Positions 15,142 to 56,050 of a stretch of 64,000 bases of DNA are shown here, in pieces. The notes beneath the pieces are model-generated. The model saw nothing but the letters and a program-made list of their open reading frames with translations. It was not told where the DNA came from and ran no database searches. Positions within the stretch are counted from its first letter, which is position 1, and each line of letters begins with the position of its first letter. The stretch is from contig CAXXVD010000002.1 in NCBI GenBank assembly GCA_963662335.2, positions 32,001-96,000 on the forward strand. The letters run 5' to 3'. Both the position numbers and the translations under genes were made by a program. The DNA is from Chloroflexota bacterium. GTDB lineage: Bacteria; Chloroflexota; UBA11872; VXOZ01.

Positions 15142-17607
15142 GTGAGTCCTCTGTACGACAAGTATACGGACCGCGCGAAGCGGGTGCTGGCGCTGGCGAC
15201 GGAAGAGGCGCGCCGGTTCAACCATAACTACATCGGCACCGAACACCTGCTGCTGGGGCTCGTGCGCGAAGGCGAGGGCATCGCCGCCAAGGTGCTCTAC
15301 GACATGGGGGTGGAACTCACCAAGGTGCGCGGCGCGGTGGAGTTCATCATCGGGCGCGGCGAGCGCGTGAACGTGGGCGACATCAGCCTGACGCCCCGCG
15401 CCAAGAAGGTCATCGAGCTTGCCACGGAAGAAGCGCGCCGCCTGGGGCACAACTACATCGGCACCGAGCACCTGCTCCTGGGCCTGGTGCGCGAAGGCGA
15501 GGGCATCGCCGCCGGCGTGCTGGAAAGCCTGGGCGTGAGCCTGGAGAAGGTGCGCCAGCGCGTCATCCAGGCGGTCAGCCAGCAACCCTCGCGCCTGACC
15601 CACGAGAGCGGCGGCCGCCAGTCCACCTCGCGCACTCCTTTGATCGACCAGATGGGCATCGACCTCACCGCCGCGGCCCGCGCGGAGAAACTCGACCCCG
15701 TCATCGGCCGCCAGCAGGAAATCGAGCGCGTGGTGCAGATACTCTCGCGCCGCACCAAGAACAATCCCGCCCTCATCGGCGAGCCCGGCGTCGGCAAGAC
15801 CGCGATCGTGGAAGGCCTGGCGCAACGGGTGGTCGAGGGCGACGTGCCGGAAACCCTGCTGGGCAAGCGCCTGCTGACCCTGGACATCGGCGCGTTGGTA
15901 GCCGGCACCAAGTACCGCGGCGAGTTCGAAGAACGGCTCAAGAAGATTCTGGAAGAGATTCGCGGCTCCGGCGACTGCATGCTCTTCATCGACGAACTCC
16001 ACACGTTGGTCGGGGCCGGCGCGGCCGAAGGCGCGGTGGACGCGGCCAATATCCTCAAACCGGCCCTGGCGCGCGGCGAACTGCAATGCATCGGCGCCAC
16101 CACCCTGGACGAATACCGCAAGTACATCGAGCGCGACGCCGCTTTGGAACGCCGTTTCCAGCCCGTGCACGTGCGCGAACTCGACATCGAAGAGACGATC
16201 GCCGTGCTTCAGGGCGTCAAGGAGGCCTATGAGGAGCACCATAAGGTGCACATCGTCGACGAAGCCATCAAAGTGGCGGCGGAGATGTCCGGCCGCTACG
16301 TCACCGACCGCTTCCTGCCGGACAAGGCGATCGACCTTATCGACGAGGCGTCCTCGCGGGTGCGCATCCAGCAGGCCAATACCTCCAACGCGCTGCGCAA
16401 CGCGGTGAAGGACCTGGACGGCATCGTGCGCGAAAAAGAGGACGCCATCGAGGGCCGCCAGTACGACGAGGCGGTTGGGTTGGGCGAGAAAGAGGCCGAG
16501 TTGCGCAAGCAGATCGAAAACCTGGAATCGGACTGGCCGAACCAGGAAGAGAAGTGGCCCGAGGTCACCAAAGAGGACGTGGCGACCGTGGTCTCCATGT
16601 GGACCGGCATTCCGGTGACGCGCATCGCCCAGGAGGAATCCGACCGGCTGCTTCACATGGAAGAAAACCTGCACCGGAAAGTGGTAAGCCAAGAAGAGGC
16701 GGTGAGTAACGTCTCCAAGGCCGTGCGGCGCGCGCGCGCCGGCCTGAAAGACCCCAAGCGGCCGATTGGCTCCTTCATCTTCGTCGGTCCCACGGGCTCC
16801 GGCAAGACCTATCTGGCGCGGGCGCTGGCAGAGTTCATGTTTGGCAGCAGCGACGCTATGGTCCTCCTGGATATGTCGGAGTACATGGAGAAGCATACGA
16901 TCTCCCGCTTGGTGGGCGCGCCGCCGGGCTACGTGGGCTACGAAGAAGGCGGCCAACTCACTGAAGCGGTGCGGCGGCGCAGCTATTCGGTGGTGCTGCT
17001 GGACGAAATCGAGAAAGCCCACCCGGACGTCTTCAACGTGCTGCTGCAAATCATGGAAGACGGACGCCTCACCGACGGCAAGGGCCGCACGGTGGACTTC
17101 CGCAACACGATTCTCATCATGACCTCCAACGTGGGCGCGCACCTGATCAAGCGCGACGCCGCCATCGGTTTCAAGCTGGACGCCTCCGACCTGCGCACGG
17201 AAGACCAGATGTATAAGGAGATGCGGGAACGGGTGATGGCGGAGATCAAGAAGACCTTCCGCCCCGAGTTCCTGAATCGCGTGGATAGCGTCGTCACGTT
17301 CCGCCACCTCTCGAAAGCGGACATCATCAACATCGTGGACATCCAACTCGCCGAGGTGCAGGCCCGCCTCACCGAGCAGGAGATCACGCTGGAAGTGACC
17401 GACGACGCCAAGGAACTGCTGGTGGAACAGGGCTACGACCCGGACAACGGCGCGCGGCCGCTGCGGCGGGTGATCCAAAACCTGATCGAGAACGAGCTTG
17501 CCGAAGGCCTGCTGGCGGAGAATTTCCACGCCGGCGATACGGTGGTCATAGACCGCGACGGCGAGGCGCTGCGCCTGGACGTGCGCGTGCTGGTTGAGCA
17601 GGCGTAA
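15142..17607 (+). CDS. clpC: ATP-dependent Clp protease ATPase ClpC
   Basis: Clp-N repeats, [11 protein letters not shown]-like M domain, [11 protein letters not shown] ClpP-docking loop. Confidence 0.97.
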
Positions 17608-20515: not shown

Positions 20516-21205
20516 ATGAGCATACTCCATACGCTGCGGCAGGACATCGACGCAGCGCTGGAACGCGACCCTGCCGCCCGCAACGTAATCGAAATCGTCT
20601 TGGCCTATCCGGGCGTGCACGCCATCTGGTTCTACCGCCTTACGCGCGCCCTGTGGCAGGCGGGCGTGCCGGTCCTGCCCCGCGTGCTCTCCCATTTTGC
20701 CCGCTTTCTCACCGGCATCGAGATTCACCCGGGCGCGCGGCTGGGCCCGGGCCTCTTCATCGACCACGGCATGGGTGTGGTGATTGGCGAGACCGCGGAA
20801 GTGGGCCGCAACGTGACGCTCTACCAGGGTGTGACCCTGGGCGCGCAGACGCTGCACACCGGCAAGCGCCATCCCACCTTGTGCGACAACGTGGTCGTCG
20901 GCGCGGGCGGCAAGATCCTGGGGCCGGTGACGGTCGGCGAGGGGTGCGTCATTGGGGCCGGGGCCGTGGTTGTCAACGATGTGCCGCCCCACGCCACCGT
21001 GGTGGGCGTGCCGGGCCACGTGGTCGCCATGCGCGACCCGCACACCGGCGAAAGCGCGCGCGTGGTGCAGCCGGACCCCATGGCGGAAGCGCTCTACGCC
21101 TTGCAGAAGCGCGTCGTAGACTTGGAAGCGCGGTTGGCCCGCTTCGAGAATGAAGAACCGCCGCCGCAGCGCGAGGAGATGCTGGAGAAGTGCCGTGACG
21201 CTTAG
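20516..21205 (+). CDS. cysE: Serine O-acetyltransferase
   Basis: [34 protein letters not shown]. Confidence 0.95.
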
Positions 21206-22643
21206 TATTTCCAATACCCTTGGCGGCCAACGAGAGCCGTTCACGCCCCTGGACGGCAAGCGCGTCAAGATGTACGTCTGTGGCATGACGCCCAAGCGCG
21301 AACCGCACATTGGCCACGCCCGCCTCTTCGTCGCCATGGACATGATCCGCCGATACCTCTCCTACCGCGGCTACGAAGTCCACCACGTGCAGAACATCAC
21401 CGACGTGGACGATAAGATCATCGATGCGGCGGAACGCGAGGGCGTGACGCCGGCTGAAGTGGCGCAGATGTACACCGACGCCTACGACGCGGTGATGGGC
21501 AACCTGAACGTCCTGCGCGCGCACGAAGTGCCCAAGGTTACCGAGACCCTGCCGCAGATCATTGCGATGATCGAAGGCTTGATCGAAAAAGGCGCGGCGT
21601 ACGCGGCGGCAGAGGCGGTCTACTTCTCGGTGCCGCGTTTCGCCGCCTACGGCGCGCTCTCCACCCGCACCGAGGAGAGCGGCGTCCAAGCCGGGGCCTC
21701 CGGGCGCGTGGACGATGAGCCGGGCAAGCGCGACCCCCGCGACTTCGCCCTCTGGAAACCGGCCAAGCCGGGTGAACCCTGGTGGCAAAGCCCCTGGGGG
21801 CAGGGACGCCCCGGCTGGCACATCGAGTGCAGCACGATGATCTACGAGACGCTGGGCGCGCAGATCGACATTCACGGCGGCGGCGCCGACCTCATCTTTC
21901 CCCACCATGAGAACGAGATCGCCCAGAGCGAGGCCTTTACGGGCAAACGTCCCTTCACGAAATACTGGCTGCACACCGGCCTGCTGACCATCGACGGCCA
22001 GAAGATGGCCCATTCCCTGGGCAACTTCATCACGATCGAAGACATTCTGGAAGAATACAGCGGCCCGGCGCTGCGGCTCTACCTGCTCTCCGTGCACTAC
22101 CGCTCACCCCTGACCTACACACCGGAGAGTCTGGAACAGGCGCGGGCGGGCCTGGCGCGGCTGACCGGCGCGCTGCGGGTAGAAGCGGACGGCGACGCCA
22201 GGGAGGCAGATCAAGACCGGGTCGGCGACGCCATAGATGAGAGCGCGGACGCCGTACTCGCGCACGCGGCCTACCAGGCGGAAACCGGCTTCTTCAGCGC
22301 CATGGATAGCGACTTCAATTCGGCCGGCGCGCTCGGCCACCTCTACCAACTGGTGCGCGAAATCAACCGCGTGGGGCCGGCCGCCGAGCCGGAGATTCTG
22401 TATCAGGCCCAGCAAACGTTGGTACGCCTGGCCGACGTCCTGGGCATCGACCTGCAAGAGACGCTGGAAGAGGAGATGCAAACCGACGCCGCCGAGTTCA
22501 TCGATCTGCTCGTGGAACTGCGCGCCGACCTGCGCCAGGAGAAGCAGTTCGCGCTGGCGGACAAGGTGCGCGATCAGTTGGCGGCGCTCGGCATTGCCCT
22601 GGAGGATTCGCCCGGCGGCACGGTCTGGCGGCGGAAGGCGTAG
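21195..22643 (+). CDS. cysS: Cysteine--tRNA ligase
   Basis: [37 protein letters not shown]; KMSKS loop reads KMAHS. Confidence 0.96.
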
Positions 22644-22918: not shown

Positions 22919-24418
22919 CTACTCTTCATCGAATATCCCTTCCAGACCCTCCCCAAAGATCTGCGCCTCCTCGTCGTACGTCGCAAAGGGATCCGGCATC
23001 TCCAGCACGCGGCCGCGCACGGCAATGGCTTTCCAATCCAGCACGTAGGGGATCACGTCCCAGCTTTCGTTCGCGGCCACGTCCTGCCAGTCATCAACGT
23101 AGTCATAGGCCAGGAAAAAATACCGGCGGTCCCACATCAGGTTTTCCAGGTTCGTGCGCAGGTCTTGCCAGGGGATGGCCGTATCCGCGCCCGCGTCGGC
23201 AAGGGCGCGCAGGGCGGCGCCGCGACCGTGGGCGCGGGTGTCGGGCGGCGCGTGCATTTCCGCCGTGTAGGCCGCGTCGCCCTCTACCCAGTAGAGACCG
23301 CGCAGGCGTTTGGCAAGCACGTCGAAGAGGCTGACCGACGGGTCGATTTGGTGATAGGAGAGGTCGAGTTTGATCAAGTCCGGGTCGGTCCAGGCCTGGT
23401 CGGAACCGGCGTAGCGCTTGAGTTGCTCGTGCTTGGTCACCCAATCCAGGTAGCCGTCCAGCCGCGCCGGGTCGCGCTCCAGCTCGTCCAGCGCCCACGC
23501 CCAATTCTCCAGCGTCCAGACCGTATCCGCGTCGCGCCCGCCAAAGCGGCGTTCGGCCTCGCGCAGGTAGCGGCGCTGCACCTCTATGGCGGGGATGTAC
23601 TCATCATCCTCCGTACCCACCGTCCACTTGCCGCCGGTGGTGCCGGCGATGCGGCGCAGATCGCGCACCGGGTCGGCGAGCGCGAGTTGCGGGCTCCAGC
23701 CTTGCTCCAGCAGTTGGGCCACCAGCGCGGTGGCGCCGATCTTCAACGCGGTGGTGAACTCGGAACGATTCACGTCGCCGACGATCACGTGCAGCCGCCG
23801 GTACTCGCGTCCGGCCAGCGGCTCGTCGCGCAGGTTGATGATGGGCCGGCCGCCGAAACGCACCCGGTGGCTCACGTCCAGGGTGACGAACTGCGCCCGC
23901 TGCGAGAGCGCAAACGCGGCCGGCGTATCCTTGCCGCGCGGCAGCAGGCAGCCGGCGCCGGTGTAGAGCTGGCGGGTGACGAGAAACGGCAACATGCCGT
24001 CCACCAGTTCGCGGTCGTAGGGGCTTTGGCGGATGCAGTAGTTCTCGTGGTAGCCGAAGGTGTGGCCGAAGTAGTCGGTGTTGTTCTTGACGAAGTAGGC
24101 CTGGGACTCAAGCCCGGCGGTGCGCACGGCTTCGTTGATGATGGCTTCGCCGGCGCGTTCGTGGGCCACGATGTCCGTGAGCGTGCGGCACTCGGCGGTG
24201 GCGTGCTCCAGGTGGCCGAGGTCGAGGTACATGCGCCCGCCGTTGAAGAGGAAGCCGCCGTTGCCCGGCGCTTCCCCCCATTCCCGGGGCGGCGGGTCGA
24301 TCAGGCCGTGGCGGCAGCCGCGGAAGATGGCGTCCTTTACCAACACCGCCGCCCGCACGGGCTGCACGCTGCCCACGCAGCCGTATTCGATCTCGGTGCC
24401 GAACAGTGCGTCATCCAT
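22919..24418 (-). CDS. pafA: Pup/UBact-type ligase (PafA family)
   Basis: GTEIEYG, NGGRMYLDLGHLEHATAEC, KNNTD...GYHENY, RDEPLA...YRRLHVIVGD, PPDTRA; no Dop loop. Confidence 0.88.
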   Translation of the reverse strand: MDDALFGTEIEYGCVGSVQPVRAAVLVKDAIFRGCRHGLIDPPPREWGEAPGNGGFLFNGGRMYLDLGHLEHATAECRTLTDIVAHERAGEAIINEAVRTAGLESQAYFVKNNTDYFGHTFGYHENYCIRQSPYDRELVDGMLPFLVTRQLYTGAGCLLPRGKDTPAAFALSQRAQFVTLDVSHRVRFGGRPIINLRDEPLAGREYRRLHVIVGDVNRSEFTTALKIGATALVAQLLEQGWSPQLALADPVRDLRRIAGTTGGKWTVGTEDDEYIPAIEVQRRYLREAERRFGGRDADTVWTLENWAWALDELERDPARLDGYLDWVTKHEQLKRYAGSDQAWTDPDLIKLDLSYHQIDPSVSLFDVLAKRLRGLYWVEGDAAYTAEMHAPPDTRAHGRGAALRALADAGADTAIPWQDLRTNLENLMWDRRYFFLAYDYVDDWQDVAANESWDVIPYVLDWKAIAVRGRVLEMPDPFATYDEEAQIFGEGLEGIFDEE

Positions 24419-24442
24419 GGCTGCCCTACCCAGGAAGCGCGC

Positions 24443-24652
24443 CTACTCGCCGCCGGGCTGCGGCGTGGGATCGGGCACTTCGCGAATGATGCGCCGGATC
24501 TCCTCGTCCAGATCGTCGGTCTCGGTCTTTTCCGGCGCTTCCGTGGGCGTTTTCGTCGGCGCTTCCGTGCCCGCCCGCGCCGGACGCAGACCGCGCCCCG
24601 CCGCGCCGGCGGCGGGTTCCGTCCGCGCTTCGTTTCCAGCATACCACGTCAC
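24443..24652 (-). CDS. Pup-like small protein modifier, 69 aa, C-terminal GGE
   Basis: GTG overlaps the dop TGA (GTGA), AAGGAGG RBS 6 nt upstream; MTWYAGNE...TETDDLDEEIRRIIREVPDPTPQPGGE; lies between dop and pafA. Confidence 0.85.
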   Translation of the reverse strand: MTWYAGNEARTEPAAGAAGRGLRPARAGTEAPTKTPTEAPEKTETDDLDEEIRRIIREVPDPTPQPGGE

Positions 24653-26208
24653 GTGCCGCCTCCTTTGTGCGTTAACCGGTGGAGTTCCTCGATCGTCTGA
24701 CACGCATCCACCATAGCCTGTTGCCGCGCCACCGTCTCGCCCCAGAGTTCGGGCAGGGCGAGGGTGAAGGACGCGCCGTTGTGTTGGAACGTAATCGACC
24801 CCCACTCCATGGCGCTGACGTGGGGCGCGAACTTGGCGAGACAGGCCGCGCGCACGCCGGCGCGGGTGTCCGCCGGCGCGGTGGTCTCGGCCCGCTCGAC
24901 GTCGTCGTCCGTGACGATACGCCGCATCCGCCCCGCGCGCGCGAGCATGTGGTAGAGGCTCACCGCCGGGTCTACCAGGTGGTAGGCCACGTCCAGCCGC
25001 AGCGCCGCCGGGTCGTCCCAATCGATGCGCTCCCCGCCGCCGATCTGGGCGAAGAGCGCCAGCTTGGCCGCCCAGTCCACGCGGTCGCGCAGTTTTGCCG
25101 CCGCGTTCGCCTCCAGCAGGTCCAGCGCCGCGCCCCACTCGTCCAGCACCCAATCGGTCTCGGCGTCGCGGCCGCGGTAGCGCAAGGCGGCTTCCCAGTA
25201 ATGGCGCTGCACGTCCACGGCGCGGACAGTCGTGCCGTCGGCCAGCGCCAGCGGCCGCGTGCATTCCAGATCGCGGGAGACCGTGCGCAGCGCGTGCACC
25301 GGGTGTTGCAGTTGCAAACGCGGGGCCGCGCCTTCCTCCACCAGGTCGAGCATCAAGGCCGTGGCCCCCACGCGCAGGGCCGTGGCGAACTCGCTGCAAT
25401 TGGCGTCGCCGATGATCACGTGCAGACGGCGGTACTTCTGCGCGTTGGCGTGGGGCTCGTCGCGGGTGTTGAAGATCGGGCGCTGGGTGGTGGTATTGAT
25501 GCCTACCTCGGTCTCGAAGAAGTCCGCCCGTTGACTGATCTGAAAACCGCCCTGGCGCCCGTTTCTCGTCTCATGCGTGGAGTGCGCTTCATAGGCAGAC
25601 TGGCTTTCGTGCGCCGCCTTGCCCGCGCCGGCGTAGATTTGGCGGGTGACGAAGAACGGGATGCAGGCGCCGATCAGGTCGTCCAGCGGCACGGCGCGGC
25701 TGACGAGATAGTTCTCGTGGCAGCCGTAACTGCGCCCGTGATAGTCAGTGTTGTTCTTGACCAGGCGCACCCGGTCGGGCTGGCCGGTGGCGGCGTTGCG
25801 CGCCTGCTGCGCCCGCCAGACCACGCGCTCGCCGGCCTTGTCGTGGGCCACCAGGTCGCGGAGGGAGAGGCAGGCGTCCGTGCAGTATTCCGGGTGGTTG
25901 TGGTCGTTGTAGAAGCGCGCGCCGTTGGCCAGCACGGTGTCGGCCAGGAGTTCCTGCCGGCTGAGGCGCTGGCTCTTGGCGGTGTTCTCCGTGCGCAGGT
26001 CGTGCGGGTCTTGATCCAGGCGCGCGACCCGCGTGCCGCGCAAGTCCAGCCGCGGGTCCTCGGCGGCGTAGTCCCAGCCGCGAAAGTTTTGCCCCGCCAG
26101 CGGCGCGCTGCGCACGAGCATCGCGGCCTCGTAGGCAAAGTCCACCGCCTGCGCGCTGTTGGCGCAAATCATGCCGTACTCGGTTTCGATGCCTACGGGT
26201 CGATTCAT
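24649..26208 (-). CDS. dop: Depupylase/deamidase Dop family
   Basis: GIETEYG, Dop loop WDYAAEDPRLDLRG, NGARFYNDHNHPEY, KNNTD...GCHENY, SQRADFFE, NTRDEPHA, RRLHVIIGDAN. Confidence 0.92.
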   Translation of the reverse strand: MNRPVGIETEYGMICANSAQAVDFAYEAAMLVRSAPLAGQNFRGWDYAAEDPRLDLRGTRVARLDQDPHDLRTENTAKSQRLSRQELLADTVLANGARFYNDHNHPEYCTDACLSLRDLVAHDKAGERVVWRAQQARNAATGQPDRVRLVKNNTDYHGRSYGCHENYLVSRAVPLDDLIGACIPFFVTRQIYAGAGKAAHESQSAYEAHSTHETRNGRQGGFQISQRADFFETEVGINTTTQRPIFNTRDEPHANAQKYRRLHVIIGDANCSEFATALRVGATALMLDLVEEGAAPRLQLQHPVHALRTVSRDLECTRPLALADGTTVRAVDVQRHYWEAALRYRGRDAETDWVLDEWGAALDLLEANAAAKLRDRVDWAAKLALFAQIGGGERIDWDDPAALRLDVAYHLVDPAVSLYHMLARAGRMRRIVTDDDVERAETTAPADTRAGVRAACLAKFAPHVSAMEWGSITFQHNGASFTLALPELWGETVARQQAMVDACQTIEELHRLTHKGGGT

Positions 26209-26210
26209 CG

Positions 26211-26264
26211 TTACCTCGCGGTACCGCGTTACCTCACGGTACCGCATTGCCTCGCGGTACCAGC
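26211..26264. repeat. Three tandem 18-bp units immediately upstream of dop
   Basis: TTACCTCGCGGTACCGCG / TTACCTCACGGTACCGCA / TTGCCTCGCGGTACCAGC. Confidence 0.9.
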
Positions 26265-26283: not shown

Positions 26284-26584
26284 CGTCATTCCCGCGCACG
26301 CGGGAATCTATCTTCGCCTTGATTGCGGAAACCCACCTTGGCCGCGCAAGCGGGATTCCACCTTTGCCGCGTTCCCGATGGATTCCCGCGTGCGCGGGAA
26401 TGACGGTCCGAAGTCGCCCCCCACTCTCAATTACACATGCGGCCTCGCCCATACTTGGGCGGCCTCGCGGAGCTTTGGCGAATCCGCCTACGCAGCGCTA
26501 TTTTCTAGTATAGCAAGCCGCAGCGCCGTTGGGTCCCCGCGCGCGGCGACACTGCGTAGGGGCACGACATGTCGTGCCCCTACG
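26284..26584. repeat. Inverted pair of ATTCCC-N8-GGGAAT repeats plus a GTAG-type REP
   Basis: CGTCATTCCCGCGCACGCGGGAATC...GATTCCCGCGTGCGCGGGAATGACG; CGTAGGGGCACGACATGTCGTGCCCCTACG. Confidence 0.8.
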
Positions 26585-26661
26585 CGTTGGACTCCAGCGC
26601 GCGCGGGCGATACGCTAGAGGGCGCGCTTCCGTGACGGTAGGCGAACCGGGAGACAACGGC

Positions 26662-27633
26662 ATGACCCTGCGCGAACTCTACGAAACGGCCATCGAAATC
26701 GGCCGCGAGGTTGATCCTCGTGGGCGCGCGGCGCTCGACCGGCAGCTTGAAGCGCGGCGGCGGGAATTCGCCACGCTGCCGGCGTGGCGCACACCCTACT
26801 ACGACCGCGAGCGCTTCACCAATCCCTACGGCGACGTGCGCATCGTGAACGGCCCGGCGGACACCGAACTCGATACCATATTGCTGGGCATAAACATCTG
26901 GACCCAGGAACTCCTGCTGGCAGACCACCTGCGGGGCAACGGCACGCGGGTCGACGCGGTGATTTCCCACCATACCAACGGCATCGGCGTGCCGACGGAC
27001 ACCCTCATCTACGACTCGGTGCCCTATCTGGTGGACCTGCTCGCAAGCGCCGGCGTAGCCCGCGCCGACGCCGAACCGCATATCGACGCTATGATGACCG
27101 AACGCTGGCTCGCCGTCGAGGACGCCAACCGCATCGGCCGGGATACGGCAAAATTGCTTGGCTTTCCCCTGGCCTGCATCCATACACCGGCGGACTTTCA
27201 CCACGGCATCGGCGTGCGCGGCGCGATTGAGGCCGCCAACGCGCGGACGGTCGGCGACGTGGTGGAGGCGCTGCTGGCGCTGCCGGAGTTTCAAGGCGCG
27301 GCGCGCATTGGCGCCATCCCGCGCATCATGGCCGGCGACGCCGCCCAACCGGCCGGCCGCATCTTCCACCAGGACGGCGGCGGCTGGCTTTTTCCGGCGG
27401 ACGTGATGCCGTTGCTCAAAGATGCCGGCGTCGGCACGTTCGTCACCATCGGCTGTTCGCCCGCCCACCAACGAAAGGCTGAGGAACTCGGCATGAACTG
27501 GGTGCGCATGCCCCACGGCGCGTGCGACAACGTGGGCCTCAACCTACTGCTCGATAAGGTGGAACAGCGCCTGGGGCCGCTGAACGTGATCGCCTGCAAC
27601 TACTTCGAGCGGATCACGCGCAATGGCAACTGA
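26662..27633 (+). CDS. NIF3-like (NGG1p-interacting factor) metalloprotein, paralog 1
   Basis: DPRG, NPYGDVRI, ISHH, CIHTPAD, HGACDNVGLN. Confidence 0.78.
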   Translation: MTLRELYETAIEIGREVDPRGRAALDRQLEARRREFATLPAWRTPYYDRERFTNPYGDVRIVNGPADTELDTILLGINIWTQELLLADHLRGNGTRVDAVISHHTNGIGVPTDTLIYDSVPYLVDLLASAGVARADAEPHIDAMMTERWLAVEDANRIGRDTAKLLGFPLACIHTPADFHHGIGVRGAIEAANARTVGDVVEALLALPEFQGAARIGAIPRIMAGDAAQPAGRIFHQDGGGWLFPADVMPLLKDAGVGTFVTIGCSPAHQRKAEELGMNWVRMPHGACDNVGLNLLLDKVEQRLGPLNVIACNYFERITRNGN

Positions 27634-28103: not shown

Positions 28104-29123
28104 ATGGTAACCCTACGCGGTTTGTATGAAACGTCCATCGCGATTGGGCGCGCACTGGATCCCAGGGGCCAGGCGGCCATCGAGGGCCAACTGCGGCAGC
28201 GCCGCGACGAGTACGCCGCGCTGCCGGCCTGGGAGCAAGCGCTCTACGATCAGGAGCGCTTCCGCAACCCGTATGGCGACGTGCGCATTGCCCACGGCCC
28301 GGCGGATACGCCCATCCAAACCGCGCTGGTCGGCATCAACATCCACGTGCCGGAGATGCTGCTGGGCGCGCACTTGGCCGCCAAAGGCACGCGCATCGAC
28401 GCTTTCATTTCCCACCACACGAACAGCGTCGGCGTCTCCGCCTCGCTGGTGGCAGACTTCATGGAGATCAACGCCGACTATCTCATCTGGGAAGGTGTGC
28501 CGGAGGATGAAGCGCGGGCGTCCATCTTCGACTACATGGCGGAGCGCCTGCAAGCGCACGAGGACATGCACCGCATCGGCCCCGACACCGCCAGGCTGCT
28601 GGGCTATCCGCTGGCCTGCATCCACACGCCGGTTGACCTGGCGCACCGCCAGTACATCAACGCGCTCTTGGCACGGGGGAAGCCTGAGACCGTCGGCGAC
28701 ATCGTCGAAGTGATGCTGACGCTGCCGGAGATGCAAGAAGCCGCCCACATCGGCGCATGGCCGCGCGTCATGGTTGGCGACGCGGCGCAACCCGCCGGCC
28801 GCATCCACGCAAAATTCGCCGGCGGCTACGCCTATCCGCCCAGCGCCTATCCGCTGCTGGCGCGGGCGGGCGTGAACACCGTGGTGCAGGTCTCGGCGTC
28901 GGCGGCCACGGTGGACGCCTGCCGCGCGCACGGCATCGCCCTGGTGCGCCTGCCCCACTACGCCACCGACAATATCGGCCAGAACCTGCTGCTGGACGAA
29001 CTGATGCGCCGCCTGGCGCCGTTCAACGTGATTCCCTGCAACTACTTCGGCCGGGTGGACCGGGCGGGCGACTTGGCCAAGTTGCTGGCGGCAGGGCCGA
29101 TCATCAGGAGTCTCCGTCACTAG
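28104..29123 (+). CDS. NIF3-like metalloprotein, paralog 2
   Basis: Collinear with 26662-27633: DPRG, NPYGDVRI, ISHH, CIHTP, HYATDNIG. Confidence 0.78.
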   Translation: MVTLRGLYETSIAIGRALDPRGQAAIEGQLRQRRDEYAALPAWEQALYDQERFRNPYGDVRIAHGPADTPIQTALVGINIHVPEMLLGAHLAAKGTRIDAFISHHTNSVGVSASLVADFMEINADYLIWEGVPEDEARASIFDYMAERLQAHEDMHRIGPDTARLLGYPLACIHTPVDLAHRQYINALLARGKPETVGDIVEVMLTLPEMQEAAHIGAWPRVMVGDAAQPAGRIHAKFAGGYAYPPSAYPLLARAGVNTVVQVSASAATVDACRAHGIALVRLPHYATDNIGQNLLLDELMRRLAPFNVIPCNYFGRVDRAGDLAKLLAAGPIIRSLRH

Positions 29124-31329: not shown

Positions 31330-32341
31330 CGCCAAATCCTGTGTGACGGTGTTGCAACTCCGGTTCGTTGAGAATCCGAAATCCTTCTCCTTTCGTCACC
31401 ATCGCAACCTGAGTCCTGCCTCCCACTGTTGCCACCCCGGGCGCAAACCTCGACTTGCCGGATTGTAGATTAACCAAGAAAGCCACGAAGTCCACTGCGC
31501 TCTGTAGAGGCAGATTTCCATAGTCAAAGCCTACCTTCAGCTTGTCCCAGGGAAGAGACACCTCCAACTTCGAGGGTAACACAGATTCAACATCAGGAGG
31601 CAACTCAAAGCCAATTTCAGCAAAGACGTCATCCAGTATTTTGACAATTGCGCCGGTCAACTGCTCATAGTTCTCGTCAATCAACCGACCTAGGTGGTTC
31701 TCGATTTCTTCCTTGAGAGCACTGTCATAGCCTCGTATCAGCCGCTCTACGCTGTCCGCTTGACCACTCCATGCAACCCCAAAACTGCCTTGGCTAAAGT
31801 GCTCGTACACTTCATTGGCTTTAGTATCAAGACGATAGACTGCAGGTAGTTCATCAGTTGCGCCATAGCCACCGACGAGAAAATTCGGTCCAGTCCAATA
31901 GTCTTGAGGAATTGTAGAGTCTTTGTAATGCTCTACGAAGTGATCTCTCATGAAGGACAGAAATGCACTGGACACAGAACGAACGTCTTCATAGGTCTCC
32001 TCGTTCTGCTTTTGTCGGGCCAGAAACTCCTCTGCATAGCTCTTCATCGTCCTATCTTTGATTTGCGCGATCCCTGAGGTCACTGCGGCGACTGGAGCTG
32101 CGCCCCCATGAATCTGGAAGAGTTTTGTCACACCTCCCCATGCGTTGGTGACAACAGGGCGAATACTTGACGGGTCAAAGCTAACGAGAGGGTGCCCTTC
32201 CCCGTCCACCAATGGTTCGCCATCTTCGTCCTTTGGCTGACTTAGTTCGAATGGATCTATAGCGTACTCAATACTACTCGCAATACTGTCACAACCCAGC
32301 ACTAACCCTTCACTGGTAGCTAGCGCGATGTTTATCGTCAT
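31319..32341 (-). CDS. Proteasome-beta-like Ntn hydrolase (Thr1)
   Basis: GGAG RBS then M-TINIALATSEGLVLGCDS; TKLF; FLVGGY; ATVGG near C-terminus; low-GC DNA. Confidence 0.7.
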   Translation of the reverse strand: MTINIALATSEGLVLGCDSIASSIEYAIDPFELSQPKDEDGEPLVDGEGHPLVSFDPSSIRPVVTNAWGGVTKLFQIHGGAAPVAAVTSGIAQIKDRTMKSYAEEFLARQKQNEETYEDVRSVSSAFLSFMRDHFVEHYKDSTIPQDYWTGPNFLVGGYGATDELPAVYRLDTKANEVYEHFSQGSFGVAWSGQADSVERLIRGYDSALKEEIENHLGRLIDENYEQLTGAIVKILDDVFAEIGFELPPDVESVLPSKLEVSLPWDKLKVGFDYGNLPLQSAVDFVAFLVNLQSGKSRFAPGVATVGGRTQVAMVTKGEGFRILNEPELQHRHTGFGDDV

Positions 32342-53887: not shown

Positions 53888-54199
53888 CTCCATACACAAG
53901 AGAGCCGACATTCGCGCAATCGATAGACTGAGACGGAAGCAATGCAGACACCGGTGTGCTCGCTGTTGATAGTAGGGGAAACTGTCAAGAAACTTTGCGT
54001 AGCACGGTCGCATTCTGGCTACAATGGATCGGCCATAGGAGTACAAGAGTTAGAGAATGTAGAGAGTGCTGTAGTCATGGGCAGTAGATGCGAAGAGCTC
54101 CGAAAGGAGGACGGACAACAATTCTCTTCGTCAGCCGCCCTGAATGTTCAGGGGCTGGTTGCCATCTGCGAGTGCTCGGACAGTCAGGATACGCTCACG

Positions 54200-54730
54200 C
54201 TAGATAAGCCCGGCTCCTTCAAGAGTTTGGTAAGCGCTTTCAATTGTCTGTCGATTGAATTTTGGCTTTATCTCGCCGACAGTCCTCAAGACTTCATCCT
54301 TAGACTGCTCTTCGTGCACCCCAGCAATAAAGTGGATTGTGGCAGAAAGCTCAAGCACATGGGTATCGAGAGAATTGAGTGCGCTAATCGCTCCATCGAT
54401 TTCTGCCCCATTAGAGAATTCCGATATGTCCTGTGCTTGCGACCAGGCTCCTCCATCTGCCGTACCCGGCGTCACATGAAATCCGAATCCGTCAGGGTCA
54501 GGATTGATGTCGACTAATCCAAGCGCCTTAGCAAGGGATAGCACACCGTCAAGATCATCCGAATAGGGACCAAAGTAATGTATCCTGAATCGGTACTCTA
54601 AAGGAGCGCCGACTGATTCTTGCAGAAAGTACGTAATCTTCTGGATCTTGGTCTTGCCAATGTCCTGACACGAGGAAACTATCCTCTCAACGATCGCCAA
54701 TCTAAATGACAGCAGTTGTTGGTCTCTCAT
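54200..54730 (-). CDS. YwgA/SocA(Panacea)-like winged-helix protein
   Basis: GKTKIQKITYFLQ and FRIHYFGPYSDDL motifs; LELSATIHF. Confidence 0.7.
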   Translation of the reverse strand: MRDQQLLSFRLAIVERIVSSCQDIGKTKIQKITYFLQESVGAPLEYRFRIHYFGPYSDDLDGVLSLAKALGLVDINPDPDGFGFHVTPGTADGGAWSQAQDISEFSNGAEIDGAISALNSLDTHVLELSATIHFIAGVHEEQSKDEVLRTVGEIKPKFNRQTIESAYQTLEGAGLI

Positions 54731-54742
54731 GGTTTGCTCCTT

Positions 54743-56050
54743 CTAGTTTACTATTGTGCCACAAAATCCTGCTATTTCTCTCTCTAAGGCTTCGTCTTCT
54801 CCAACGTCAGCATATACTCTAAACTGAATGACTTCGTCTAAGCCATACAGAGCCTTAGAGAGGCTCTTGAGAGAGGCCCACCTACCGTCTCTTCTTTGAA
54901 TCGACAACTCCTCGTCGCCCATTTTGTATCTCTCTGGATGGTCGGTTGCTTTGTCAGTCCAGATTTCGACATTGGGATAGTTGGCTTGCAACTCTTGAGG
55001 CAGCAGCATCGCGCGGTTAACTAACGCTGAGTCGGCGTGATCGCCAGTTTGAAAGACGGGCTTCGGGTGCTTTCGGGCGGCCAGTCTCCACGCCAGGTTC
55101 CTCGCGCCCTCGTCCCGACGCTCGTTCAACTCCGCCAAGACGTTCCAGTCACTCCATTTAATGTACTCTGCTACTTGGTCGGGGTAGTGTTCCAAGTCTA
55201 GCCTGTCTTGCAGTAGCTCATGAATGAAGTCGGTCAGTATCAGATCGTATGCGCGGCGAACCGCATGAAAATACACCTGGGTGAACATAAAATACCTTGC
55301 TAGAATAAATCCCTCTATTGCGTGAATGCCACCGTATTCAACTCCCAGCCTGAGAACGCCGTCCGGGTTTTCGTCATAGAGCGTAATCGTATCGATAATT
55401 CTGTCCAGGTCAAACGAGCCATATCGAACGCCGCAATACAATGAGTCGCGTAGCAGGTAGTCCATCTTGTCGACGTCCCACACACTGTCAATCAGCTCTC
55501 GCACGAATCCAACTTCATATATTCCTCTCTCTTGGAGTATGGCAACTACCCTCTGCGTAGTCACGCCGAAATTACGTTCCAAGTCGTCGATGATGGGACA
55601 TATCCCCATCTCAGGCGAGAGCACTATCTCTTCACTGTATTGTTCGTGCTGTTTGCCTTTTGGAAATAGCGTCTTCTCTCCCGTGTGAGAGAACGGCGCA
55701 TGGCCAATGTCGTGCAGCAGTCCAGCTAGGCGAGCCTCCAACACGATCTGATCCACTTTCGATTTGAATTCGCCCTCAGACCATCCTTGTCTCTCTTTTA
55801 GTAGCTGCTTGTGCTTAGGGTGCCGAAGTATCTTCTCGACGAATCGCCCCGCTAGGTGCATCACGCCCAATGAGTGGCCGAAACGAGAGTGCTCCGCGCC
55901 GTGATAAACGTATGAGGACAGTCCCAATTGCCGAATGCCGCGCAGCCGCTGAAAGACTGGCGTGTCGATTATCTCCTTTTCCCAATCGAATACACCAATA
56001 TACCCGTGTATCGGGTCTCTGAAAGTTCTGGTCGGTTCAGGCAAAGGCAT
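54743..56050 (-). CDS. HD-domain phosphohydrolase, YwfO/SAMHD1-like dNTP triphosphohydrolase family
   Basis: RDPIHG, FQRLRGIRQLG, HSRFGHSLG, LLHDIGHAPFSH, DVDKMDYLLRD, QVYFH. Confidence 0.88.
   Translation of the reverse strand: MPLPEPTRTFRDPIHGYIGVFDWEKEIIDTPVFQRLRGIRQLGLSSYVYHGAEHSRFGHSLGVMHLAGRFVEKILRHPKHKQLLKERQGWSEGEFKSKVDQIVLEARLAGLLHDIGHAPFSHTGEKTLFPKGKQHEQYSEEIVLSPEMGICPIIDDLERNFGVTTQRVVAILQERGIYEVGFVRELIDSVWDVDKMDYLLRDSLYCGVRYGSFDLDRIIDTITLYDENPDGVLRLGVEYGGIHAIEGFILARYFMFTQVYFHAVRRAYDLILTDFIHELLQDRLDLEHYPDQVAEYIKWSDWNVLAELNERRDEGARNLAWRLAARKHPKPVFQTGDHADSALVNRAMLLPQELQANYPNVEIWTDKATDHPERYKMGDEELSIQRRDGRWASLKSLSKALYGLDEVIQFRVYADVGEDEALEREIAGFCGTIVN

Follow-up and report, generated by a model that had tools for sequence, protein, structure and literature searches.

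A three-gene dop–tag–pafA cassette points to probable pupylation-type protein tagging without a proteasome in a class of Chloroflexota

We analysed a stretch of 64,000 nucleotides (nt) from a Chloroflexota bacterium (GTDB lineage UBA11872, VXOZ01; forward-strand positions 32,001 to 96,000 of contig CAXXVD010000002.1, assembly GCA_963662335.2; hereafter the window), which carries a cassette of three genes coding for two paralogous enzymes related to Dop and PafA, the eraser and the ligase of the bacterial Pup system, and for a small protein encoded between them (hereafter the tag). The first-pass annotation, made from the letters of the window and a list of its open reading frames (ORFs), had described three packed minus-strand genes for a Dop-family enzyme, a modifier of 69 amino acids (aa) ending in GGE and a PafA-family enzyme, and all three are present. 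The features of the cassette, in window coordinates and in the direction of transcription, are as follows.

24649..26208, minus strand: putative Dop-like depupylase/deamidase paralogue of 519 aa with a Dop loop (assigned from PF03136, TIGR03688, similarity to Dop structures in the Protein Data Bank (PDB), loop residues and tree position)
24659..24665, minus strand: AAGGAGG ribosome-binding site within the 3' end of the Dop-like gene, 6 nt before the GTG of the tag gene
24443..24652, minus strand: tag gene of 69 aa with a GTG start, TAG stop included, ending RIIREVPDPTPQPGGE (assigned from the ORF and its conservation)
22919..24418, minus strand: putative PafA-like ligase paralogue of 499 aa without a Dop loop (assigned from PF03136, TIGR03686 and tree position)

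The GTG of the tag gene shares 4 nt with the TGA stop codon of the Dop-like gene, and AAGGAGG or GGGAGG precedes the tag start in loci of the same genus too. The start of the Dop-like gene was placed at 26208 because its homologues begin at MNRPVG; an upstream ATG at 26247 sits in a tandem repeat.

The Dop-like protein matched PF03136 with 503.8 bits and scored higher with the Dop model TIGR03688 than with the PafA model TIGR03686 (435.7 vs 357.6 bits, both under the equivalog cut-offs), the alignment to TIGR03688 beginning at residue 16 and that to TIGR03686 only at residue 86. The closest solved structures were those of Dop (5lrt/4b0r, 343.9 bits, residues 1–509, with the Dop loop aligned), compared with 234 bits for solved PafA, which aligned from residue 65 onward only. 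Among 16 Dop-like sequences, the motif GIETEYG, the Dop-loop residues R43, G44, W45, D46, E50, D55, R57 and G58, and D102-H103 with the downstream HPEY were invariant. By its alignments to TIGR03688 and 5lrt and by these loop residues, the protein is a Dop paralogue with a Dop loop of about 40 residues. It is 45% identical to the Dop of G374, a genome of the same class with a UBact locus, and enzymes of this kind in metagenome-assembled genomes of Chloroflexi already bear the NCBI label 'PafA2 family protein'.

The PafA-like protein, which matched PF03136 with 352.5 bits, showed the opposite order of scores (TIGR03686, 292.6 bits; TIGR03688, 252.1 bits). Invariant in 27 PafA-like sequences were G7, T8, E9 and E11, then D66, G68, H69 and E71, and finally R208, H210, D215 and N217, so that the protein has the GhExE motif and the catalytic Asp of a PF03136 carboxylate-amine ligase. 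A quick maximum-likelihood tree of the enzymes (53 rows, with Shimodaira–Hasegawa approximate likelihood ratio test (SH-aLRT) values as the only support) contained two clades. One comprised all 22 PafA-like proteins together with the PafA of G374 and two of its paralogues, with the PafA-like group (22 rows, SH-aLRT 100) lying beside the PafA of the UBact–proteasome locus. The other held all Dop-like proteins (18 rows, SH-aLRT 100), which grouped with Dop from UBact-type loci, among them the Dop of G374 and homologues in records of Nitrospira, Verrucomicrobia and Armatimonadetes, and in both halves of the tree the Chloroflexota-type proteins formed long-branched groups of their own. The order of the NCBIfam scores, the missing Dop loop and the position in the tree favour a ligase of the PafA type over a second Dop as the product of the third gene, a distinction that the solved structures do not make.

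To obtain related loci, one genome per species was searched with an alignment of Dop-like proteins. All 80 loci found came from Chloroflexota/Chloroflexi records, three of them from Thermoflexus, in agreement with the Chloroflexota origin that had been called probable at first. In 76 of the 80, tblastn located a tag ORF between both enzymes, and the order dop–tag–pafA was kept; among the four exceptions, three end at a contig edge within dop and one (L054) has both enzymes, is truncated at their junction and lacks the tag. The N-terminal halves of the tags vary in sequence and length, giving whole tags of 57–108 aa (with heuristic starts). Every copy has an E-A-P-x-K-P motif together with an acidic patch, and the C-terminus, RI[IV]RE[IVLM]P[DGN]P[TK]PQPGG[E/Q] (in the main RIIRE[IV]PDPTPQPGG[E/Q]), is near invariant and ends PDPTPQPGGE in the window. 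A small protein ending in GG[E/Q] is encoded beside the enzymes, with Glu as the final residue in 45 and Gln in 31 of the 76 loci. Over the last 20 codons, 77 tag sequences yielded 74 distinct DNA versions and only 23 peptides, the first, second and third codon positions were variable at 9, 5 and 20 of the 20 sites, respectively, and the pairwise codon differences comprised 21,990 synonymous and 9,084 non-synonymous ones. This codon-position pattern argues that conservation of the tag acts on the protein: the tag is a real gene under protein-level purifying selection.

No member of a known modifier family was recognised in the tag. Neither the Pup models (PF05639, TIGR03687) nor the UBact models (PF20513, NF033388) matched any of 30 aligned tag members at E ≤ 10, and scans of the same 30 with Pfam and NCBIfam gave chance matches only (FtsA_C in 8 of the 30, best E-value 0.011). 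An hhalign comparison of the tag with one UBact sequence was not significant, and the best local pairing between the two families in hhalign (TDDLDEEIRRI with TKELLRRMRRV) was not significant either. The ESM Atlas returned no usable match. In a collection of 5.8 billion proteins, 161 clusters matched the tag at E ≤ 0.01; among the 120 clusters listed, none had a Pfam domain for the tag (one has a PF03136 match) and all names given were 'hypothetical protein'. Among 1.84 billion representatives there were 26 matches at E ≤ 0.001 (the four weakest, one of them of 2246 aa, uninspected), and with so few matches the tag family is a narrow one. Inspected by eye, the tag and UBact have the same succession of TKP, a basic helix, D-P and a G[E/Q] end, which we regard as a lead only. 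Judged by these profile comparisons, the tag falls outside both Pup and UBact and belongs to no described family.

The cassette proved to be a trait of one lineage. In a phylum sample of 401 genomes PF03136 scored over its cut-off in 43, all of which belong to the class of the window, and none of the 356 genomes of the phylum sampled outside that class reached the cut-off, one having a single weak match below it. Of 98 genomes of the class that were surveyed (the window's genome included), 93 matched PF03136, typically with one adjacent pair and nothing more, and 89 contained the tag as a single copy per genome. The five genomes lacking PF03136 (G089, G222, G350, G406 and G414) measure 1.9–2.2 Mb, are 76–93% complete and lack the tag as well, suggesting loss during genome reduction. 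The outcome of the operon survey across Chloroflexota that had been envisaged for this locus is near-fixation in one class with no match over the cut-off in the genomes sampled outside it, and the cassette is a lineage trait of the window's class. Clustering of the ORFs within 10 kb in 81 sources revealed lineage-specific housekeeping genes as neighbours and no conserved partner beyond the three genes; the next commonest neighbours were an ornithine cyclodeaminase-like gene (26 of 81 sources), ClpC (23 of 81) and other metabolic genes.

Most accounts of pupylation treat it as the means by which the bacterial proteasome is supplied with its targets. The flanks of the cassette in the window contain no gene for a proteasome or its ATPase. 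In the window's genome (G000; 3.23 Mb in 5 contigs, 96% complete, not closed) we found no prcA/prcB pair, no Mpa/ARC, no Pup and no UBact. The Mpa/PAN OB domain PF16450, PF05639 and PF20513 had no match there, while the controls matched as expected: the Corynebacterium glutamicum genome with PF05639, PF16450 and TIGR03689, and G374 with PF20513 at 79 bits. The best TIGR03689 matches in the window's genome were two FtsH and one ClpX. On another contig than the cassette lies a lone proteasome-beta-like ORF of 242 aa that starts MTVCIAAL (G000:C3:463592-464320; L001 1096..1824) and scored 43.8 bits with PF00227 in hmmscan and 41.8 bits with the archaeal beta model, the cut-off of which is 224. 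It is situated in a patch of low G+C content (0.52–0.57 vs about 0.66) without informative neighbours and adjoins a 632-aa ORF of no known family. PF00227 was matched in 2 of 16 genomes of the same genus and in 12 of the 98 class genomes, outside G374 mostly by single ORFs with 22–46 bits.

Throughout the class, TIGR03689 was matched at E ≤ 1e-50 in 2 of the 98 genomes, namely G374 (453 bits, near full length) and G441 (a double-AAA, Cdc48-like ORF), and G374 was the sole genome with an adjacent proteasome pair beside an Mpa-like ATPase. Its locus (L095, G374:C2:55000-72000) reads ATPase–dop–UBact–prcB–prcA–pafA, with 81 bits for prcB, 453 bits for the ATPase and, for UBact, 77 bits with NF033388 and 79 bits with PF20513; a canonical locus is therefore readily detected when present. 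No tag ending PQPGG[E/Q] was found in G374, and UBact and the PQPGG[E/Q] tag were mutually exclusive in the 98-genome class sample. Beyond this locus, G374 carries another three paralogues of the PafA family, all on different contigs, and a second site with a PF00227 gene on contig C14 (L096, L097). Hence the absence of proteasome and ARC/Mpa genes, noted in the first-pass annotation for the locus, extends to the whole genome at 96% completeness and to almost the whole class; the genome-wide search for prcA, prcB and arc/mpa left neither a pair nor an Mpa/ARC, and one weak lone PF00227 ORF.

From alignments of 27 rows for the PafA-like protein and 30 rows for the tag, the complex of the two was modelled in three runs, which reached ipSAE interface scores of 0.79, 0.78 and 0.79, compared with 0.00 for the best of three controls. 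The predicted local distance difference test (pLDDT) value of the partner was at least 50, and the runs shared at least 43% of their contacts; of 80 solved complexes 58 pass the mark used for such models, as do 2 of 110 mismatched pairs. In the modelled interface the C-terminal 26 residues of the tag (44–69) lie in the groove and active site of the enzyme. Tag residues 58–69 are placed against a beta-sheet cradle (residues 11–21, 66–69, 108–122 and 212) that holds the invariant E11, D66 and H69, and the tag helix 44–56 against residues 332–371. The E-A-P-x-K-P motif is located upstream of the confident interface and outside it. The model supports, and does not prove, binding of the tag to the PafA-like enzyme, and the conservation of a motif away from the ligase suggests a further binding partner other than Mpa.

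On this basis, a working scheme may be proposed. The largely disordered 69-aa tag would dock in the groove of the PafA-like enzyme through its C-terminal helix (about 44–57) and its proline-rich tail PDPTPQPGGE, and the Dop-like enzyme would strip it off again; in species with a Gln-ended tag, the Dop-like enzyme would first deamidate Gln to Glu. The lysine acceptor, the chemistry and the respective roles of the two paralogues are presumed by analogy with the actinobacterial Pup system. For proteomic searches, the predicted tryptic remnant on a modified lysine is the 12-residue peptide EVPDPTPQPGGE (+1203.54 Da; +1217.56 Da for the form EIPDPTPQPGGE) and not the GGE-Lys named at first as the mass-spectrometric signature, because no Lys or Arg follows R57 in the window's tag. 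The kept gene order, the invariant catalytic motifs, the Glu and Gln endings, the purifying selection, the complex model and the missing proteasome and ATPase all speak for a system of writer, tag and eraser such as the first-pass annotation had envisaged. We consider it likely that the cassette encodes a self-contained and reversible pupylation-type system for tagging proteins, one that operates in the absence of a proteasome. More tentatively, with a confidence that stops a little short of even, the tag may represent a third Pup-type modifier family beside Pup and UBact, fixed in this class of mostly uncultured Chloroflexota, with a PafA/Dop lineage of its own and a reader, neither Mpa nor proteasome, that would dock at EAPxKP.

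Several observations weigh against this interpretation. Compared with solved structures, the PafA-like protein scored 210.3 bits with PafA and 208.9 bits with Dop, which is no separation, and the fold of its model (pLDDT 80.2) was as close to the PafA–Pup entry 4bjr (template modelling score 0.77) as to the Dop entries (0.76–0.78); it also falls far below the equivalog cut-offs of both NCBIfam models. A profile of the tag compared with the PDB retrieved no Pup chain at E ≤ 10 and five chance matches only, and hhalign gave a probability of 0.37% for the tag against 27 UBact sequences. As homology to Pup or UBact is not detectable, 'Pup-like' refers to position, size, disorder and the GG[E/Q] end; the Pup-like modifier described at first therefore stands as a layout, while its family membership does not, the tag being neither Pup nor UBact by Pfam, NCBIfam, PDB and hhalign comparison. 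The calibration of the complex model is only rough because our own alignments were used, and its score may in part reflect likeness to the PafA–Pup and Dop–Pup complexes, which have been solved. Finally, weak PF00227 homologues are under-counted, as the class-wide search scored the window's genome as 0, and the class search with TIGR03689 scored 13 candidates per genome only.

Four alternative explanations were considered, the first two of which concern the purpose of the tagging. Tagging could be purely regulatory or structural, altering the activity, assembly or location of its targets, with Dop as the off-switch. This we hold to be possible, if doubtful. Mpa/ARC and the 20S proteasome are missing from the genome and from nearly all of the class, and Dop is retained also in the 45 of 76 loci whose tag already ends in Glu and would have nothing to deamidate, as would be expected if the tag has to be removed. 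A recorded case of proteasome-independent pupylation is that of C. glutamicum, which according to excerpts of PMC8223512 lacks PrcAB, keeps ARC and employs pupylation in a degradation-independent role in ferritin disassembly; the two cases are alike in keeping pupylation without 20S genes, but canonical Pup and the ARC unfoldase, on which C. glutamicum still draws, are both missing here. The conserved EAPxKP motif, which implies some partner, also speaks against this reading.

That partner could be an unfoldase, and the tag might mark proteins for degradation by another unfoldase–protease (ClpC–ClpP, ClpX–ClpP, Lon or FtsH), perhaps through EAPxKP. We judge this unlikely, and it would refine the proposal of self-contained reversible tagging rather than replace it. 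The window's genome does encode ClpC (window 15142..17607; AAA_2, Clp_N), ClpX and two FtsH. In 23 of 81 sources the cassette has a ClpC-like ORF no more than 10 kb away, and the conserved motif is outside the region that contacts the ligase. However, ClpC is unlinked in the other 58 sources and, where linked, is found on either strand and at varying distance, and the cassette has no conserved neighbour in addition to its own three genes.

It is improbable that the ligase couples the tag's Glu to an acceptor other than lysine (a small amine, a lipid head group or one dedicated protein) as part of a biosynthetic or maturation module. PafA is a member of the carboxylate-amine ligase (glutamine synthetase-like) superfamily, other members of which act on small molecules (excerpts of PMC2588565), and the fold matches of the PafA-like model include YbdK and GshA, but the paired Dop-type hydrolase with its Dop loop, the Glu/Gln dimorphism and the disordered tag of 57–108 aa are hallmarks of protein tagging, and the neighbourhood of the cassette shows no conserved genes for biosynthesis or export. 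An ordinary UBact– or Pup–proteasome system with a split locus, its proteasome and ATPase missed through assembly gaps or divergence, is highly improbable: the unclosed genome, the lone proteasome-like ORF and the low sensitivity of the class-wide searches to weak matches would allow for it, but many single-contig class genomes of 93–99% completeness contain the cassette and no PF00227 or Mpa-like match, the G374 locus was readily found, and the lone ORF is single, lies in a low-G+C patch and has counterparts in few genomes of its genus. We rejected a decaying remnant of a UBact locus because catalytic residues are invariant, the codon positions show selection on the tag protein and the cassette is retained across the class.

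Set beside the actinobacterial Pup system, the cassette shares two PF03136 paralogues, one with a Dop loop, and a small disordered tag between or beside them with a GG[E/Q] end that is modelled at the active site of the ligase. It differs in that the tag is outside PF05639 and TIGR03687, the enzymes are below the equivalog cut-offs and the genome lacks Mpa/ARC and PrcAB. The segment of Pup just before GG[E/Q] is helical, and in the window's tag this part is replaced by the proline-rich stretch PDPTPQP. With the UBact system of G374 the cassette shares the same enzyme pair, a tag directly after dop, a basic helix, D-P and a G[E/Q] end; however, UBact ends in RRYRQR[ST]G[EQ] and the present tag family in PDPTPQPGG[EQ], and the G374 locus includes an ATPase and prcB–prcA, whereas the window's cassette consists of the three genes alone.

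In the literature, represented here by excerpts of each source, Pup systems outside Actinobacteria are described from Nitrospirae, Verrucomicrobia, Planctomycetes and Deltaproteobacteria, in two lineages unlinked to the proteasome (PMC2588565), and sporadically from NC10, Armatimonadetes, Nitrospinae, Firmicutes and Proteobacteria (PMC7947786). In Plesiocystis and Rhodopirellula, the Pup-ligase and a small protein with a G[EQ] end are encoded without linkage to proteasome genes (Iyer et al. 2008, PMC2588565), and by these descriptions their ligases, with four inserted transmembrane segments and linkage to a membrane protein, are set apart from the two soluble paralogues found here. Some Planctomycetes have a single Pup-ligase copy per genome, and the Glu/Gln dimorphism is known from Pup, the Gln-ended form of which needs deamidation by Dop (excerpts of PMC7947786). 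The excerpts of PMC2588565 and PMC7947786 do not mention Chloroflexi, although the sequence sets of the latter may include Chloroflexota entries. We found no description of this system and no paper on pupylation in Chloroflexota/Chloroflexi, in line with the initial view that the lineage had no known characterisation. What appears to be new is the tag family, its fixation throughout the class and the fact that Mpa/ARC and 20S genes are both completely missing, while the chemistry of the enzymes would be the same as in pupylation.

The proteasome-independent roles of pupylation are an open question (excerpts of PMC8223512), for which a class that keeps writer, eraser and a selected tag without proteasome or Mpa/ARC offers a natural test case of Pup-type tagging alone. 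If a third family with a non-proteasomal reader is confirmed, Pup-type tagging would count as a general modification that is independent of the proteasome rather than an appendage to it. The invariant, trypsin-resistant C-terminal signature of the tag is searchable in existing metaproteomes, and the 'hypothetical' naming of the tag gene in every named database copy among the clusters listed marks an annotation gap. The three genes are of modest size and could yield an orthogonal tagging tool.

The cassette is flanked in the window by the following genes.

21150..22643, convergent with the cassette: cysS (PF01406, 398.8 bits)
26569..27633 and 28104..29123, plus strand, divergent from the operon: two paralogous ORFs of 354 and 339 aa (no Pfam family at E ≤ 1e-5)

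The first-pass annotation had named convergent cysS and divergent NIF3-like genes as flanks. The cysS assignment holds, and 'NIF3-like' stays unconfirmed because the divergent ORFs match no Pfam family at the E-value above; the two paralogues are not kept next to the operon elsewhere. An 18-bp tandem repeat (26209..26261, 2.9 copies, 88% matches) immediately precedes the start codon of dop, and a related repeat occurs in locus L009. In the remaining loci of the genus, the 125 bases ahead of the ATG contain a conserved GCTTGCTATACTAGA element in place of the repeat, possibly the -10 region of a promoter. The spacer between tag and pafA measures 24 nt in the window and 245–673 nt, without a conserved ORF, in most other loci of the genus (long spacers occur in L010–L021, L026, L027 and L073); that of L027 is 734 nt long and contains a 109-aa ORF. 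Elsewhere in the window, the G+C content falls to 0.505 at 54001..56000, compared with about 0.65 in the remainder.

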